Assembly (NCBI GenBank): GCA_016218805.1
Contig: JACRCW010000012.1
Span: 1-41,367 of the forward strand
Direction of reading: 5' to 3'
DNA: 41,367 bases
DNA from: Deltaproteobacteria bacterium
GTDB taxonomy: Bacteria; Myxococcota; JACRCW01
The notes below the pieces were generated by a model that was not told the origin of the DNA, did no database searches, and saw only the letters and a list, made by a program, of their open reading frames with translations. Shown here piece by piece: positions 6,930 through 13,453 of the stretch. The number at the start of each line of letters is the position of its first letter. The stretch's first letter is position 1. The position numbers and the translations under genes were made by a program.

Positions 6930-9182
6930 ATGCGCCTGCCTGTCGTCGTTATCCCGGTCCTGCTGTCCACCCTGGTCCACACGGGCTGCCCCGTGGCGCA
7001 GTGCCGGGATGACCAGGTCCGCGAGGACAACACGTGCGTGACCCGCTGCACGCGTGACTTTGACTGCGATGCGCCACAGCGGTGCACGGACGGGCGGTGC
7101 CGCCTGGGCGGCGGGAGCTCATCGGGCCACGTTGCCTCATCAACGGGCAGCGCCACGTCCACCGCCCTGCCCTCCTCCTCCTCCTCCTCCTTCTCCTTCT
7201 CCTCCTCCTCTGCGCCGGGCGGTTCGTCCACGGGGACCCCGTCATCACGCACGCCCTCGTCGTCACCAGCGCTGACCTCGTCGTCCGCCACCATCACCGC
7301 GTCGTCTTCGGCAGCGGTGGTGTGGTCATCATCCGCGGCCGCGCCCCCCTCCAGCAGCGCCGCGGCGTGCACCGCCGCCACCGCGTGCGTGGCGGGGGAT
7401 GGCTGCTGTCCGGCGCTGTGCGCCTCGGCGGCGGACGCGGATTGCCCGCCCGCGGGCGTGCTGGAGCTGGCCGCCCCGTCGCTGTCGGTCACCGAGGGCG
7501 GCACTGTGCAGGTGGTGGTCCGCCGCGTGGGCGGCAGCCGCGGCAGCGCGCCGTTCACGCTGCTGGCCACCGGCGGCACCGCCAGCGTTGGGGCACACTA
7601 CGCGTTTGCCGGGGGCAGCTCTGCGTTTGCGGACGGGGACGCGGCGGACCGCGCGTACGCCCTGTCCACGGTGGATGACGCGGTCCGCGGGGACCGCACC
7701 GTTGTACTGGGCCTGTCCGCCGGGACCGGGACCACGCTGGGCACGGTCCGTTCCACCACGGTCACCATTGAGGATGATGACGTGTGCCTGCTGCCGGATG
7801 TGCCTGACGCCGCCGCGGACCCGGGCGCGCTGGAGGTGTACGTCACCCAGCCCGTCATCACCGCGGCCGAGGTGGACTGCCGCACGCTGGCCAGTGGGGA
7901 CGCCGTGCCCGCGCAGCGGATGAACGCCATCCTGTGGCAAATGGGCGCCTCCGCGGATGACACGCCGGTGACCTGGGACGTGGGCACGCGCACGGGGTTC
8001 CAGCCGGGGTCCGCGTCAGAGTGGAGCGCCTGGCAACGCGGCCCCAACGACACGCCGGGCACTTCCGCCGTGCAACTGCGCGGCGGAACGGCGGGCATCT
8101 ACATCAACTCGGCGTCCGCCGGTGTCCCTGTCACGTCGGAAATCCTGCCCATTGTGCTTCACCATGATCTTGCGGCCACGGCGGATGAACGCCCGTTCCT
8201 GGATCCCAGCCACGAGCTCACCTACGCGCTGGACCTGCAGGTGCCGTGGGCCACGCGCAGCGGCGCCGGGCAGGTCTACGCCACCGCGGTGCTGCGCTTC
8301 CTGGACGCGCGCACCGGCCGCCAGGTGTGGATGGTGATCCAGGCGTTTGACCTGCGGCCCGCACAACCGGAAGGCGCCATCCTGGACGGGTGCTCCACCT
8401 GCACGCAGCTGCCCATCATCATCACCGCGTTCGCGGCGGGCACGCGGTTTGGCCACGTGGCGTCGGACTCCGCCACGTTCACCACCACGCCGTGGACCGG
8501 CTTCCGGCGTTTTGAGTTCCGCCTGGCGCGCGCGGAGTTCGCCGCAGCGCTTGCGGTGGTGAAGACGCAGTTTGCGTTTGATGACACCGAACTGTCACCC
8601 GACCCGTCCGACTTCCGCCTGGTGCACCTGAACATCAACCCGGAGGTGTACGCGCCCGCCGGGTCCACCGGGAGCATTGGCATGTCCGTGCGCAACATTG
8701 TCCTGGCGCGCCACGCCGCGCGCCCGCTGGGGTATGACCGCGTGTACTACCGCGGCGCCAACGCCAGCCCCGTGGCCAACGCGCAGGCGTTCTTCACCAC
8801 CGCCACCGACGGGACCTGGGACGAGGCCAAGAGCGTCTGGGCCCCCTTCCCCAACCACGGCGGGACCGTTGAGGTGCTCTTTGACTTTTCTACGCACCCG
8901 CGCTGGACCGGGACGCTCACCGGCCTGCGCATAGACCCGTTTGACAGCAGCGCCGCGGGCGCGTGCTTCAACGTTGACGAGATCCGCGTGCAGGACGCGG
9001 CCGGCAACGTGGCGCTGGCGTGGGCCTTCAACGGCGCGGCCGTCACCCCCACCGAGCCGTGGTTCGGCTGGACGTTCAACGGGCTGACGTCACTGTGGTC
9101 AGACGGGAGCTTCTGGGGCGCCTGCCAGGTCAACGGCGACCCCGGGTTCCAGGCCAGCGTGAACATCCCCACGGGACGGTGA
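6930..9182 (+). CDS. Cys-rich lipoprotein with Ser-rich linker, Calx-beta domain and C-terminal carbohydrate-binding-like region
   Basis: Signal ending ...VHTGC, Cys-rich module, poly-Ser linker, Calx-beta pattern (SVTEGG...VRRVGG...TTVTIEDDD), C-terminal W.GTLTGLRIDP motif. Confidence 0.75.
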   Translation: MRLPVVVIPVLLSTLVHTGCPVAQCRDDQVREDNTCVTRCTRDFDCDAPQRCTDGRCRLGGGSSSGHVASSTGSATSTALPSSSSSSFSFSSSSAPGGSSTGTPSSRTPSSSPALTSSSATITASSSAAVVWSSSAAAPPSSSAAACTAATACVAGDGCCPALCASAADADCPPAGVLELAAPSLSVTEGGTVQVVVRRVGGSRGSAPFTLLATGGTASVGAHYAFAGGSSAFADGDAADRAYALSTVDDAVRGDRTVVLGLSAGTGTTLGTVRSTTVTIEDDDVCLLPDVPDAAADPGALEVYVTQPVITAAEVDCRTLASGDAVPAQRMNAILWQMGASADDTPVTWDVGTRTGFQPGSASEWSAWQRGPNDTPGTSAVQLRGGTAGIYINSASAGVPVTSEILPIVLHHDLAATADERPFLDPSHELTYALDLQVPWATRSGAGQVYATAVLRFLDARTGRQVWMVIQAFDLRPAQPEGAILDGCSTCTQLPIIITAFAAGTRFGHVASDSATFTTTPWTGFRRFEFRLARAEFAAALAVVKTQFAFDDTELSPDPSDFRLVHLNINPEVYAPAGSTGSIGMSVRNIVLARHAARPLGYDRVYYRGANASPVANAQAFFTTATDGTWDEAKSVWAPFPNHGGTVEVLFDFSTHPRWTGTLTGLRIDPFDSSAAGACFNVDEIRVQDAAGNVALAWAFNGAAVTPTEPWFGWTFNGLTSLWSDGSFWGACQVNGDPGFQASVNIPTGR

Positions 9183-9249: not shown

Positions 9250-9582
9250 TCAGCGCGCGCGCTTGAGCTTGGCGACGATGCGGTCCTTCGCCTCGTCGTT
9301 GGCTTCGGGCTCCTCGCCCTCGGGGTCCTGCAGGTGGCGGCCGGTGGCCAGGTAGGCGCGCTTCTCAATGTCCAACAGGTACTGCCGCAGCGCGGAGTTC
9401 ACCGCGTTGGAGGGCAGCGGGTCATGCAGGCCCACCTCCATCCCGTGGTGCATGCGCAGCACATTCTCCTCCGCGCTGCTGAGCGTCTCGCCCGGGCGGG
9501 TCTTGACGTTGCTCAGCCGGCGCTTGCGCGCAGCGGTCTGGGTGACTTCCCGGGTGGCGGTCTTGCTGGACGGCTTGCGCAT
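9250..9582 (-). CDS. small hypothetical protein (110 aa) with sigma70 region-4.1-like segment
   Basis: GGAGAG RBS before ATG 9582. LSSAEENVLRMHHG segment and C-terminal KDRIVAKLKR. Confidence 0.75.
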   Translation of the reverse strand: MRKPSSKTATREVTQTAARKRRLSNVKTRPGETLSSAEENVLRMHHGMEVGLHDPLPSNAVNSALRQYLLDIEKRAYLATGRHLQDPEGEEPEANDEAKDRIVAKLKRAR

Positions 9583-9924
9583 GATGTGGGGCTCTCCGAA
9601 GGCGCGTTGACCTGACACCTGCACCCTAGGGTGGCCCGAAAAGGGGGGTCAAATTTCAGCCCGCTCCGGCGGCCGAAGATCGCGCGCAAGGCGGCGCTTT
9701 CAATGCGTTTTATGAAAGTCCTTCATGTGCTTTCTGAAGCCGGGATTTCCACCGATCCCGCACCCTGTTCGCAGGGGCCGTTCCCGATCCGATCCCGGAG
9801 GGGCCCGTGACCGGTGGAAATCCGCTCAGCGCTGCGATTTTCGCCGATTTTCGCGCGCTTTCTCGCGCTTGGATGGCTCCTTGGGGGGTGTGATGGGGTC
9901 CTGAGGACGGCGGGCGCCGCGGCA

Positions 9925-12045
9925 TCACCCGTTCTTGAGACGAACCACCGACTTGGACGCGCCGCCCGTCCGCCCCGCCGGGTTGCGCCCACGTCGACGG
10001 GAACCCTTCCGCCCCGCACCCTCAGGCCGCTTCACCCCCAGGCTCAACACGCCCTGGTCCTGCAGCGTCTTGATCGCGTCCCGCAGCTCCGCGGCCCGCT
10101 CAAACTCCATCGCCTTGGCTGCTTCCTGCATGTCCGCGCGCATCTTCTCGACGAGCGCCGGCACCTCCGCCGGCGCAATGAAGTCCCCACCGGAGTCCGC
10201 CGCCAGTGGCACGTCAAGGTAATCCATCGCCGCGTAGCCCATCTCCGTGTCGATGTCCCGGATGGCCTTCTCAATCGTCTTGGGCGTGATGGCGTGCGCG
10301 CGGTTGTACTCCGCCTGGATCGCGCGCCGGCGGTCGGTCTCCTCCAGCGCCGTCTTCATGGACGCCGTCACCTTGTCCGCGTACATGATCACGCGCCCCT
10401 CCACGTTGCGCGCGGCCCGCCCAATGGTCTGGATGAGGCTGCGCTCCGCCCGGAGGAAGCCCTCCTTGTCCGCGTCCAGGATCGCCACCAACGACACCTC
10501 CGGCAGGTCCAGGCCTTCGCGCAGCAGGTTGATGCCCACCAGCACGTCAAACACACCGCGGCGCAGCTCGTTGAGGATCTGCATGCGCTCCAGCGTGTCC
10601 ACGTCGGCGTGGAGGTACTTCACCTTGATGCCCAGGTCCGCGTAGTACTCGGTGAGATCCTCCGCCATGCGCTTGGTCAGCGTCGTCACCAGCACGCGGT
10701 GGCCCTTCGCAATGCGCGCGCGCAGCTCGCCCAGCAGGTCATCCACCTGGCTGCCCGCGGGACGCACCTCCACCATCGGGTCCACCAGGCCCGTCGGACG
10801 GATGATCTGCTCCACCACCACGCCGTGCACCTCGTCCAGCTCAAACGCCCCCGGCGTGGCGCTGACGTACAGCGTGCGCGCGCGCTCACGCCGCAGCACC
10901 TCCAGCTCCTCAAACTTGAGCGGCCGGTTGTCCAGCGCAGACGGGAGCCGGAAGCCGTAGTTGACCAGCGTCTCCTTGCGGCTGCGGTCGCCTTTGTACA
11001 TCGCGCCCAGCTGCGGAATCGTCTGGTGGCTCTCGTCAATCACCATCAGGAAGTCTTTCGGGAAGTACTCCAGCAGCGTCGGGGGCGCCTGCCCGGGCGC
11101 GCGCCCCGTGAGGTGGCGGCTGTAGTTCTCAATGCCGGAGCAGTAACCAATCTGCTCCATCATCTCCAGATCGAACATCGTCCGCTGCTCGAGCCGCTGC
11201 GCCTCCACCAGCAGGTTCTGCCCGCGCAGCTCCTGCAGGCGCACCTGCAGCTCGTCACGGATCTGCCGCACGGCGCGCTGCCGCTGCTCCACCGGCGTCA
11301 CGTAGTGGCTGGCCGGGTAGATGGCCACCTTGTCCAGGTCCTGGATCACCTTGGCCCGCAGCGGGTCAATCTCGCGGATGTGCTCCACGTCGTCGCCAAA
11401 GAACTCAATGCGAATCGCCTTCTCCTCCTCATACGCGGGGAACACCTCCAGCGTGTCACCGCGCACGCGGAACGTGCCGCGGTGGAAGTCGATGTCGTTG
11501 CGCTCGTACTGGATCTCCAGGAGCTTGCGGATGAACCCGTCGCGGTCCAGCCGGTCCCCCACGTTGGCCAGCGCCACCATGCCCTCGTACGCCTCCGCGC
11601 TCCCCAGGCCGTAGATGCAGGAGACCGACGCGACGATGATGACGTCGTTGCGCTCCAGCAGGCTCTTGGTCGCCGAATGCCGCATCCGGTCGATGGCGTC
11701 GTTGATGGTCGCGTCCTTCTCAATGTACGTGTCCGTCGACGGGACGTACGCCTCCGGCTGGTAGTAGTCGTAGTAGCTGACGAAGTACTCCACCGCGTTG
11801 TCCGGGAAGAGCCCTTTGAGTTCCTGGTAAAGCTGCGCCGCCAGCGTCTTGTTGTGCGCCAGTACCAGCGCCGGCCGGTTGAGCCGGGAAATCACGTGCG
11901 CCACCGTGAAGGTCTTCCCGCTGCCCGTCACCCCCAGCAACACCTGTGACTTCTCCCCCGCCGTGTATTGCTGCACGAGGGTCTGAATCGCCTGGGGTTG
12001 GTCCCCCGTGGGCTGGTAATCCGTGACGAGGCGGAAGGTGGCCAT
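9925..12045 (-). CDS. uvrB: excinuclease ABC subunit B
   Basis: [31 protein letters not shown] beta-hairpin, [15 protein letters not shown]-terminal UVR domain FERAAELRD. Confidence 0.98.
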
Positions 12046-12077
12046 GGCCCGCCGTCGGTACCGTTGCGCGCGGTGGC

Positions 12078-12106
12078 TGGCAAGCCGCACCGCCAGTCCC
12101 TACAAT
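12078..12106 (+). promoter_or_regulatory. sigma70-like promoter for the peptide gene
   Basis: TGGCAA-17 nt-TACAAT, followed by GAGGAG RBS and ATG 12128. Confidence 0.45.
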
Positions 12107-12127
12107 GCGGCCCACCGAGGAGAGCCC

Positions 12128-12400
12128 ATGTCCAAGCGCAAGACGCCGTGGTTGGAAAACCCGTTCCGCTTCAAGACGTTTTTCGAATACGCGACGGGCC
12201 TCCCGCGCCACGCCTCCGGCAAGGGCGGCAAGAAGCCGGGCAAGGAGAAGGACAAGGGCACCGTCACCACCATGGCCGTGGGCGAGGAAGGCACCGGCAC
12301 GCCGCCGCCGCCGCCCGGCAAGACCACGCCCGCCATCGGCGAGGAAGGCGCAGGGGACGTTCCCACCACCACGATCGCCAAGGGAGAAGAGGCGGGCTGA
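12128..12400 (+). CDS. putative plesiocin-type graspetide (omega-ester RiPP) precursor peptide, 90 aa
   Basis: Strong RBS. Three TTxxxxEE cores (TTMAVGEE, TTPAIGEE, TTIAKGEE) follow an aromatic-rich N-terminal leader and GKGG. Confidence 0.7.
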   Translation: MSKRKTPWLENPFRFKTFFEYATGLPRHASGKGGKKPGKEKDKGTVTTMAVGEEGTGTPPPPPGKTTPAIGEEGAGDVPTTTIAKGEEAG

Positions 12401-12414
12401 TTCCTCCCCCCACC

Positions 12415-12473
12415 CGGGCGATGCCAAGGCATCGCCCGACCTCCCCCCGCACGCGGCCGCACGCGGGGGGAGG
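12415..12473. terminator. two tandem GC-rich hairpins between convergent genes
   Basis: CGGGCGATGCC-aa-GGCATCGCCCG (12415-12438) and CCTCCCCCCGC...GCGGGGGGAGG (12440-12473). Confidence 0.5.
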
Positions 12474-12477
12474 CAGG

Positions 12478-12543
12478 CCGCGCTTGCTTCCCTGCTCAAT
12501 ACCGCGCCTGCTTCCCTGCTCAATGCCGCGCTTGCTTCCCTGC
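12478..12543. repeat. 24-bp direct tandem repeat, about 2.75 copies
   Basis: CCGCGCYTGCTTCCCTGCTCAATR at 12478 and 12502, with a partial copy at 12526. Confidence 0.85.
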
Positions 12544-12547
12544 GCGC

Positions 12548-13453
12548 TCAGGAACTCCGGGTGGCCCGCGCCGCCATCGTCGTCAGCAGCTGCTCCAGTT
12601 CCGCCCCCGGGATGACGTACACGCTGCGGCAGAAGTCACACGTCGCCTCGGCCTGGCCCACCTCGTCAATGATCGCGCGCACCTCGTCCCGGCCCACCGC
12701 TGCCAGCGCGTCCTTCACCCGCTCGCGCGAACACGGGCAGAACCACCGCACCGCGCGCTCCTCCGCGTCCTTGTAGGCAGCACCGTCCACCACGCGCTGC
12801 ACGATCTCGTTGGGGTCCGGCAGCGGTCCGTCACCCAGCAACCGGGCCAGCCCGCCATCACGCAGGCGCGCCTGCGCGTCCTCCACCTGTTTCCCGTCGC
12901 TGCCGGGCATGGCCTGCACCAGCACGCCCACCGCCCGCTCCACCGCCGCGCGGTCCGCACGGATGCGCACGTCCGTGCCAAACGCGCTGGCCAGCTGCGC
13001 GCTCTGGTGCAGGTACGCCTCCACGTCCGCGTCCACCTCGCCGTCCACCAGTTCACAGGACCCGCGCACGTACTGCCCACCGTGCGGGTCCAGCAGCACG
13101 TGCAACAGCCCGCTGTGCCCCAGCCCCGGCGCCACCCGCGCCCGCGCGGACGTCCCAATGGGGATGAGCACCATGGGACACCGCACCGACCCGCGCACCG
13201 TGCCGGACGCCGCCGCGTCCACCGCCACCGCACCCAGGGGCCCGTTGCCCACGATCTGCAGGTTCACCCGTCCCTCGTCCCGCAGCGTCGACGAAATGAG
13301 TGTGGCCGCCACCATCGCACGGCCCAGCGCCACCGTGGCGATGGGCGTGGCGCGGTGACACGTGCGCGCCGTCTCCACCGCTCCGTCCATGACGGCCACG
13401 CTCACGCGCGTCAGCCCGTCCCGCGCCATCCGCCTCACCCAGCGATCACCCAT
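12548..13453 (-). CDS. hslO: Hsp33 redox-regulated chaperone
   Basis: ATVALGRAM, GNGPLG, GTVRG, LVDGEV.AD..YL.QSAQ and the C-terminal zinc motif CPCS...CDFC. GGAG RBS before ATG 13453. Confidence 0.92.
   Translation of the reverse strand: MGDRWVRRMARDGLTRVSVAVMDGAVETARTCHRATPIATVALGRAMVAATLISSTLRDEGRVNLQIVGNGPLGAVAVDAAASGTVRGSVRCPMVLIPIGTSARARVAPGLGHSGLLHVLLDPHGGQYVRGSCELVDGEVDADVEAYLHQSAQLASAFGTDVRIRADRAAVERAVGVLVQAMPGSDGKQVEDAQARLRDGGLARLLGDGPLPDPNEIVQRVVDGAAYKDAEERAVRWFCPCSRERVKDALAAVGRDEVRAIIDEVGQAEATCDFCRSVYVIPGAELEQLLTTMAARATRSS

Follow-up and report, generated by a model that had tools for sequence, protein, structure and literature searches.

A putative three-core plesiocin-type graspetide precursor beside uvrB and a candidate unlinked PsnB-like ligase in a myxobacterial-lineage genome

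Plesiocin belongs to the group 2 graspetides and has four TTxxxxEE cores; each core carries two Thr-Glu macrolactones, an inner one between T32 and E37 and an outer one between T31 and E38 (bioRxiv 10.1101/2021.03.09.434688). In its precursor, PsnA2, the core contains AIGEE, and the conserved leader region LFIEDL lies at residues 14-19, ahead of the TT at 31-32. According to the same report, Phe15 of this region is the key contact for the ligase PsnB, PsnB Phe203 is critical for leader binding and activity, Arg213 and Arg72 recognise the core Glu/Gly, and Arg101 is conserved in group 2a enzymes only (bioRxiv 10.1101/2021.03.09.434688). Plesiocin inhibits elastase with a Ki of 16 nM and chymotrypsin with a Ki of 7.5 nM, and the engineered variant Psn-LLLR gains trypsin inhibition (PMC10125368). 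The more motifs are cyclised, the higher is the potency, and graspetide mining with RODEO starts at the ligase and reads the local neighbourhood only (PMC13097080). Precursors encoded far from a ligase are treated as a mere possibility in the graspetide literature consulted, and no described unlinked group 2 precursor was found in the plesiocin/graspetide literature, of which the primary plesiocin papers and the large mining papers were not covered. Here we describe a small gene, P0001, on a stretch of 41,367 nucleotides (the window; contig JACRCW010000012.1 of assembly GCA_016218805.1, Deltaproteobacteria bacterium, phylum Myxococcota; contig C33 of genome G000). P0001 is probably a three-core plesiocin-type (group 2) precursor in a conserved split layout, matured in trans by P0014, an ATP-grasp ligase encoded on another contig, C129, of the same genome.

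P0001 reads MSKRKTPWLENPFRFKTFFEYATGLPRHASGKGGKKPGKEKDKGTVTTMAVGEEGTGTPPPPPGKTTPAIGEEGAGDVPTTTIAKGEEAG on full translation. Its parts are, in order, the leader PWLENPFRFKTFFEY, the sequence GKGG and three TTxxxxEE motifs with Pro/Gly-rich spacers. A preliminary description of the window had reported this 90-residue open reading frame (ORF) with its motifs, spacers, leader and GKGG, a promoter and a ribosome-binding site (RBS) of its own, and divergence from uvrB, and the sequence agrees with it on each of these counts, on the promoter and the RBS by consensus only. All the parts are present on translation. A predicted sigma-70-like site and a GAGGAG were found by consensus; the single sigma-70-like site compares with an average of 0.0 over 50 shuffled sequences, and GAGGAG lies 5 nt before the ATG. 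The ATG at 12045 on the opposite strand belongs to uvrB, assigned by NF003673, and the divergent intergenic region is 82 bp long. Three of four aligned ortholog intergenic regions have in common a GGCAA and a -10-like hexamer rich in TA.

Spurious ORFs are common in high-GC DNA, and P0001 might be a chance open frame in the 71%-GC DNA between uvrB and hslO, and no gene. Several such frames overlap P0001 in other frames. GC at codon positions 1/2/3 of P0001 is 0.58/0.57/0.89 (0.92 at position 3 of uvrB), and a high third-position GC is also seen in the frame antisense to P0001. Pfam and NCBIfam gave 0 families for P0001 at E<=10. The homologues argue against this reading. A search of 5.8 billion proteins gave 80 candidates, 13 of which, P0001 itself included, stand at E<=0.01. 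Eleven of these (P0002-P0012, all metagenomic) have the leader and all three cores in common with P0001 at 55-72% identity (BLASTP), and P0013 is a three-core peptide with a leader of the Myxococcaceae type. In the alignment of the 13 sequences (A1) 20 columns are invariant, and all but one of these lie within the cores or directly ahead of them; they are the core residues given as invariant in Table 1, with G74, P79 and, as the only one in the leader, Y21. The Lys/Gly/Pro linker and the spacers drift across the same alignment. Among the four coding sequences compared (the window, L085, L084 and G001), 19-25 codon differences per ortholog pair are synonymous only, and the RBS and start of P0001 agree with the starts of the homologues. 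In a six-frame translation of the whole 6,433,327-base genome TTxxxxEE occurs 28 times in total, and P0001, with three, is the only ORF with at least two within 40 residues, so its motif cluster is not a product of chance. The search for further ORFs of this kind in the genome, proposed in the preliminary description, thus returned none, and the only paralogue-like match to P0001 there is at chance level (E 1.68, contig C91). The early claim of a multi-core TTxxxxEE peptide is borne out by the homologue search and the alignment, in which the peptide is conserved. Judged from its sequence, P0001 is a real gene under purifying selection; the chance of a spurious frame is negligible, and that reading was dismissed for practical purposes on account of the homologues, the invariant motifs, the synonymous changes and the genome-unique motif triplet.

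The cores of P0001 belong to a wider family. A scan for the core pattern in one genome per species (GTDB) gave 65 loci in other genomes, from Myxococcaceae, Archangiaceae, Planctomycetota, Cyanobacteriota, Cellvibrionaceae, Burkholderiaceae, Bacillota and others, with 2-21 TTxAxGEE repeats per ORF. The 517 motifs have Ala at position 4 in 501 cases, Gly at position 6 in 510 and V/L/I at position 5 in 482, and position 3 is variable (M 184, L 164, K 60, Q 55, Y 14, R 12 and others). An ATP-grasp gene homologous to P0014 lies <=1.4 kb from the repeats in 50 of the 65 loci (tblastn), and a hidden Markov model (HMM) of 48 ligases adds five, which brings the ligase-adjacent loci to 55/65. The cores of P0001, called plesiocin-type at the outset, do fit the TTxAxGEE of precursors that adjoin PsnB-like ligases elsewhere. 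They also differ from each other, as had been stated, with M, P and I at position 3 and K at position 5 of core 3. TTMAVGEE (core 1) is the commonest core type among the 517 motifs; Pro at position 3 (core 2) is outside the ten commonest residues there, Ile at position 3 (core 3) is rare, and Lys at position 5 (core 3) is found in 2/517. The hypervariable third core residue is a likely specificity determinant, as the motif counts and the name of the variant Psn-LLLR suggest. Because its three TTxxxxEE motifs match the definition given in the plesiocin report cited above, P0001 carries the defining group 2 core (bioRxiv 10.1101/2021.03.09.434688). By its residues and gene order it agrees with group 2 in the cores and departs from it in the missing neighbouring ligase and in the literal leader motif. 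That P0001 is a group 2 precursor at all is very likely.

Genome-wide searches with TIGR04184, TIGR04187, PF08443, PF13535 and PF02655 had no match on contig C33, and the HMM of 48 group-2-type ligases had no match at E<=0.01 among all window ORFs of >=60 aa. Both results agree with the earlier statement that the 41 kb hold no ATP-grasp maturase. P0001 had also been called an orphan; this is true of the locus, but the genome does encode one PsnB-like ligase, P0014 on C129, and P0014 is the only match to itself in its own genome at E<=1e-5. The true RimK is on contig C28. The best solved relative of P0014 is 7DRM (E 1.1e-25, 93.9 bits, query residues 6-287), which is confirmed as PsnB (bioRxiv 10.1101/2021.03.09.434688); the next solved match, 9BOU, has 66.9 bits, and microviridin-type and RimK chains have ~29-34 bits. 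Identity of P0014 to the ligases beside myxobacterial TTxAxGEE precursors is 36-43%. P0014 retains the counterparts of PsnB Arg72, Arg101, Arg213 and the D(F/W)R loop (DFR in PsnB). None of the 48 ligases departs from R198, D221 and R223, R58 is nearly invariant among them, and these residues align to PsnB R213, DFR 233-235 and R72, with the PsnB chain numbering taken as native plus 20 by count on the alignment. The Arg in LARERAD of P0014 aligns with the Arg of PsnB AFRERS, which is Arg101. GC is 0.710 on C33 and 0.711 on C129, and the genome contig mean is 0.701 (sd 0.011), in keeping with a common bin for the two contigs.

The surroundings of P0014 hold other genes of interest. An 824-aa polytopic membrane protein is encoded at G000:C129:29983-32454 on the minus strand (locus L083, 7983-10454) and ends 7 nt before the start of P0014. 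Its homologue, 49% identical, stands at the same place beside the ligase in genome G001. In a protein atlas the 824-aa protein falls among PTPS_related/YfhO-like membrane proteins of the GT-C type (feature score 0.99, structure TM 0.72), and it could act as a partner or an exporter or be a mere operon neighbour. Neither this protein nor a 337-aa neighbour of the ligase has a Pfam match or a homologue in the 65 canonical loci, and the two membrane proteins were not counted as parts of the system. A second ATP-grasp gene lies on the same contig, 26 kb from P0014 (G000:C129:2916-3380, plus strand; PF13535, 100.5 bits; 439-aa frame), and has no match to graspetide-maturase models. In another genome of the same class, G003, two tandem ATP-grasp genes with 31% identity to P0014 are found at G003:C116:10183-11710; near them, at about 1252 (+) of locus L075, a small ORF has a single TTLYGVGEE with a loop of five residues, not four, which may be a variant core.

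G000 (92.4% complete, 170 contigs) has exactly one multi-core precursor and one group-2-type ligase, and they are on separate contigs. This arrangement is repeated in the sister genus. Among 61 genomes, its own and 60 relatives, the peptide is carried by two, G000 and its sole family-mate G001 (96% complete), and each of the two encodes a PsnB-like synthetase, so that the refuting condition set in the preliminary description, no synthetase in genomes with the peptide, does not hold. The peptide ortholog of G001 lies on C59, where it diverges from a uvrB of 76% identity, and the ligase ortholog (56% identity) is on C514, behind the 824-aa homologue and without a nearby precursor. G001 also carries a separate, canonical linked precursor-ligase pair on C65. 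Two metagenomic orthologs, L084 (6.3 kb) and L085 (5.0 kb), are likewise divergent from uvrB (uvrB identity 75% and 79%), and no ligase is present on these short contigs. A check of synteny among homologues, which the preliminary description had proposed, therefore shows uvrB adjacency in all four orthologs with context. In a maximum-likelihood tree of the ligases (58 rows, quick method), the G000:C129 and G001:C514 ligases form a clade with SH-aLRT 100 and a long stem of 1.15, nested in a 95-supported clade of 30 myxobacterial-type ligases; the G001:C65 ligase has another place within that clade. On C514 of G001, a 55-residue stretch (G001:C514:8669-8833, minus strand), which lies ~3 kb downstream of the intact ligase ortholog, has 55% identity to ligase residues 188-242 and may be the remnant of a duplicated ligase.

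The leader of P0001 was described at first as lacking the LFIEDL of plesiocin. The literal motif is indeed absent, but an alignment by eye gives it an apparent, diverged counterpart. In A1, the invariant Y21 is joined by P12, F18 and F19, which are nearly invariant leader residues. F18-F19-E20-Y21 stands where PsnA2 has F-I-E-D, Myxococcaceae have F-[IVT]-[KR]-Y and planctomycetes and Bacillus have LFIE[GE]L, and TFFEYATG of P0001 retains a Phe and a Tyr three residues on, as the Myxococcaceae leaders do. FFxY thus looks like a diverged form of an LFIEDL-type recognition motif and not the absence of one. Elsewhere the leader is LFIE[GE]LE in planctomycetes and Bacillus, SLFI[SP]DLG in Burkholderiales, of an HPF type in cyanobacteria and gammaproteobacteria, and PSF[IVT][KR]YE[LV]P in Myxococcaceae and Archangiaceae; in the 65 loci and the ligase tree, leader types follow ligase clades. 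The leader-binding pocket differs as well. PsnB Tyr171, Ile193, Leu196, Val201 and Phe203 correspond to Ala, Leu, Leu, Val and Leu in P0014, so that the pocket is still hydrophobic and both aromatics are gone, as they are in G001:C514. For this comparison 20 of the 48 rows of the ligase alignment (A2) were inspected; there the canonical myxobacterial ligases have F/Y in place of Tyr171 and F in place of Phe203, and G000 and G001:C514 have Ala and Leu. The leader shift from F-[IVT]-x-Y to F-F-x-Y accompanies the pocket changes in the same comparison, and it is plausible that smaller pocket residues facing a bulkier FF leader represent compensation.

These data suggest the following route. P0001 would be translated from its own promoter beside uvrB, and FFxY within PWLxxPFxFxxFFxYATG of its leader would dock on the leader-binding domain of P0014. 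P0014 would then work in trans, phosphorylating two Glu side chains in each TTxAxGEE core and linking these to the hydroxyls of the two Thr residues. The result would be three bicyclic hairpins of the ring-within-ring kind, with <=6 ester bonds. By analogy with plesiocin the product may be a serine-protease inhibitor, and the M, P and I cores may target different proteases. The modification of P0001 by P0014, the ring topology and the inhibitory function are inferred.

Several observations weigh against maturation of P0001 by P0014. The best NCBIfam match of P0014, TIGR04187 at 102.9 bits, is far below the cut-off of 350; TIGR04185 (55.2 bits, cut-off 425) and TIGR04184 (45.8 bits, cut-off 475) are also below theirs, and no group-2-specific NCBIfam model is among its matches. 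FFEY and the first TT of P0001 are ~26 residues apart, about 2x the spacing in PsnA2. The pocket changes could equally mean a changed substrate, which is conceivable because Phe203 is reported as critical in PsnB and is Leu in P0014. The position of the ligase 7 nt behind the conserved 824-aa gene points to another role or another partner. Neither a transporter nor a leader protease was identified near the precursor or the ligase, and no signal peptide was identified. Because the genome is 92.4% complete and in 170 contigs, a second ligase could be unassembled. The pairing of peptide and ligase rests on two genomes that are related and not independent. The predicted complex of P0014 with residues 1-58 of P0001 scored 0.34, with the best of three controls at 0.00, and this is a weak pass. 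The mark is reached by 116 of 157 solved complexes and two of 215 mismatched pairs, and scores <=0.60 that reach it come from only 18 of the 157 solved complexes and from both passing mismatches. In these runs >=52% of contacts were in agreement and the partner pLDDT was >=47. The pass may be memory, because a like complex, PsnB-PsnA2, has already been solved; the prediction gives weak support to the pairing.

Four of these points, namely the incomplete genome, the pocket of P0014 with Leu for Phe203 and Ala for Tyr171, the tie to the PTPS_related/YfhO-like gene that is kept in G001, and the weak pass of the complex, can also be read in another way. P0001 would be a genuine group 2 precursor and P0014 would not be its maturase; the true ligase would be unassembled, or P0014 would serve another substrate connected with its membrane-protein neighbour. 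G001 speaks against this, as in a more complete genome it repeats both the uvrB-linked peptide and the orthologous unlinked ligase in addition to its separate linked pair. No other TT..EE-type substrate is found near either ligase (G000, G001), and no [TS][TS]x4[ED][ED] peptide lies within C129:22001-38000 around P0014. The core-binding arginines are kept, including the equivalent of the group-2a-specific Arg101. We regard a different maturase as unlikely.

The constant position beside uvrB, seen in 4/4 orthologs, and the lack of a nearby ligase might instead mean that P0001 acts in unmodified form as a small conserved protein, such as a disordered one rich in Thr, Glu and Pro with a functional tie to uvrB, whose TTxAxGEE repeats come down from a graspetide ancestor and have ceased to be cross-linked. 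The pattern of conservation does not favour this. Thr-Thr, Glu-Glu, Ala and Gly of the cores are invariant or nearly so in the 13 sequences, and as these residues are kept while spacers and linker drift, cores recognised by an enzyme are what would be expected. A matching ligase is kept in G000 and in G001, the two genomes with the peptide. A link to the SOS response was considered by means of a myxobacterial LexA-box consensus. Matches at <=3 mismatches number 18 against 14.7 expected. None is in the shared intergenic region 12046-12127, and one, with three mismatches, is inside the ORF at 12153-12169. An SOS link of P0001 through uvrB was rejected on these grounds, and since the intergenic region has no LexA-box-like site, nothing ties P0001 to the regulation of uvrB. 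An unmodified protein is quite improbable, and maturation in trans by P0014 is still the reading that we prefer.

Other precursors without a neighbouring ligase are present among the 65 loci. There are ten: L004, which is the ortholog of P0001, L010, L048, L064, L034, L019, L028, L033, L035 and L047. L010, L048 and L064 are at contig ends, and L034 is 1.1 kb from one. L019, L028, L033, L035 and L047 have long flanks without a ligase, ~10 kb on the sides available, and all five of their genomes have group-2-type ligases elsewhere. The best ligase of G061, of G064 and of G065 stands next to a precursor of its own, and for this reason the unlinked precursor is taken as an extra copy there. Around the best ligase of the planctomycete G063 (L035 with L155), ~9-10 kb on each side are free of TT..EE peptides, and in Calothrix (G062; L033 with L156) no TT..EE peptide is present on the 12.3-kb contig of the best ligase. 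In both, a three-core precursor and the best ligase are on separate contigs and neither has a partner in the flanks examined. The split state therefore recurs and is not unique to P0001, and split layouts may be a recurrent, overlooked class. Three cores are also found in L028, L033 and L035, which is an anecdotal pattern. What is particular to P0001 is that the split is kept across two genera, together with a fixed place at uvrB, a special leader and three mutually different, position-fixed cores.

The features of the locus and of the ligase are collected in Table 1.

Table 1. Positions of the precursor gene, its parts, its neighbours and the candidate ligase (window positions unless a contig is named).
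Feature	Position	Strand	Basis or remark
Precursor gene P0001	12128..12400	+	90 codons + stop; leader, Lys/Gly/Pro linker, three cores
Conserved leader segment PWLENPFRFKTFFEYATG	12146..12199	+	F18, F19, Y21 = proposed ligase-recognition motif
Core 1 TTMAVGEE	12266..12289	+	T47, T48, V51, G52, E53, E54 invariant in 13/13
Core 2 TTPAIGEE	12323..12346	+	T66, T67, A69, G71, E72 invariant, E73 nearly
Core 3 TTIAKGEE	12368..12391	+	T81, T82, A84, G86, E87, E88 invariant; I83, K85 nearly
Promoter-like CTGGCA-18-TACAAT; RBS GAGGAG	12077..12106; 12117..12122	+	consensus evidence
uvrB	9925..12045	-	NF003673, 1069 bits, cut-off 743
Two GC-rich hairpins	12415..12480		inverted repeats I1, I2, just past P0001 stop, before convergent hslO
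hslO (Hsp33-family chaperone)	12548..13420	-	convergent downstream of P0001; NF001033, 213 bits, below cut-off 244
ATP-grasp ligase P0014, 311 aa	G000:C129:29040-29972	-	sole genome match to TIGR04187 and TIGR04184

The RNA fold of the hairpins behind P0001 has -54.8 kcal/mol (z -4.95), and 0 of 200 shuffles were equally stable. A scan for the intrinsic-terminator consensus gave 0 sites, and the hairpins are likely a terminator without a U-tract. Between them and the 3' end of hslO, at window 12478-12549, a 24-nt unit, CCGCGCTTGCTTCCCTGCTCAATA, is repeated three times in tandem with identities of 100%, 92% and 83%, and the last copy extends to the hslO stop region. At the G001 locus of the peptide, no ORF matched hslO. 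A look for RNA reads across P0001 met 11 sequencing runs, all of them DNA. Beyond uvrB, a 124-aa ORF (window 9253-9624, minus strand) is kept at the same place in G001 (55% identity over 83 aa) and has no NCBIfam family. The N-terminus of a 750-aa ORF (window 6930-9182, plus strand) is signal-like; this ORF also contains a segment rich in Cys and a long low-complexity stretch of mostly Ser, Ala and Thr, and it has no NCBIfam match at E<=1e-5.

Our study can be extended to a further, tentative proposal that goes beyond the pairing itself. The system may be a fully split graspetide system, stable over family-level divergence, in which the sole precursor is fixed by uvrB, the sole macrocyclase is fixed behind a GT-C-like gene, and leader and pocket have changed together. 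The peptide would then be a housekeeping, three-headed (M, P, I) protease inhibitor and not an accessory natural product. We consider this possible and somewhat doubtful. If it is true, short three-core split layouts in other phyla, such as those of G062 and G063, escape the neighbourhood-based mining of peptides that are made on ribosomes and modified after translation (RiPPs). P0001 and P0014 offer a concrete, testable case with one precursor and one ligase, unlinked, and with the layout kept in a sister genus. The diverged leader and the matching pocket changes could show how leader recognition evolves, and the cores, all three unlike and two carrying residues that are rare in the family, are natural variants for studying the protease specificity of the hairpins. 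If the pairing of P0001 and P0014 fails, P0001 is still a new subfamily of a known RiPP class.

Among described systems, PsnA2/PsnB of Plesiocystis pacifica (7DRM, 7DRN, 7DRO, 7DRP) is the closest. Both precursors are multi-core TTxxxxEE peptides, and AIGEE is also present in core 2 of P0001. In each case one PsnB-type ligase is encoded in the genome, and that of G000 has the equivalents of Arg72, Arg101, Arg213 and DFR. The hosts are of myxobacterial lineage: the genome of the ortholog L004 belongs to Myxococcota, and a review calls P. pacifica a marine myxobacterium (PMC10125368). The product expected of P0001 would, by analogy, be a tandem bicyclic hairpin protease inhibitor like plesiocin. 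The differences are in number, leader and layout. Plesiocin has four cores, whereas P0001 has three that are position-fixed and mutually unlike; the PsnA2 leader has LFIEDL, whereas P0001 has FFxY with an extra PWLxxPF segment and a linker about 2x longer. The plesiocin genes are described as one biosynthetic gene cluster (PMC10125368), and P0001 and P0014 are on different contigs. Two leader-pocket residues are changed in P0014.

The linked pairs of Myxococcaceae and Archangiaceae (e.g. L013-L016, L036, L038 and L041) have the same core consensus and Lys/Pro/Gly-rich spacers, and their ligases are the closest to P0014 outside its own subclade, at the 36-43% identity given above. Their leaders share the F-x-x-Y spacing, as PSF[IV]KYE[LV]P against TFFEYATG in P0001. 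In their precursors 7-18 near-identical cores follow one another in tandem, and a divergent ligase is 150-370 bp away, whereas P0001 has three distinct cores, has no adjacent ligase and is fixed beside uvrB. The other unlinked group 2 precursors (L035 in G063, L033 in the Calothrix genome G062, L028 of Archangium violaceum, L047 and L019) resemble P0001 in having TTxAxGEE and a ligase elsewhere, but they have different leaders and no uvrB linkage and belong to different phyla. Microviridin-type (group 1) peptides are also RiPPs cross-linked by leader-guided ATP-grasp ligases, and multi-core precursors are known among them, such as AMdnA (PMC5934393). P0014 has weak matches to the MvdC/MvdD models and to MdnB/MdnC-like chains, at 30-55 bits against 94 for PsnB. 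The core motif, the ring topology (a cage and not a hairpin) and the enzyme complement (two ligases) of the microviridin type differ from those of group 2, to which P0001 very probably belongs.

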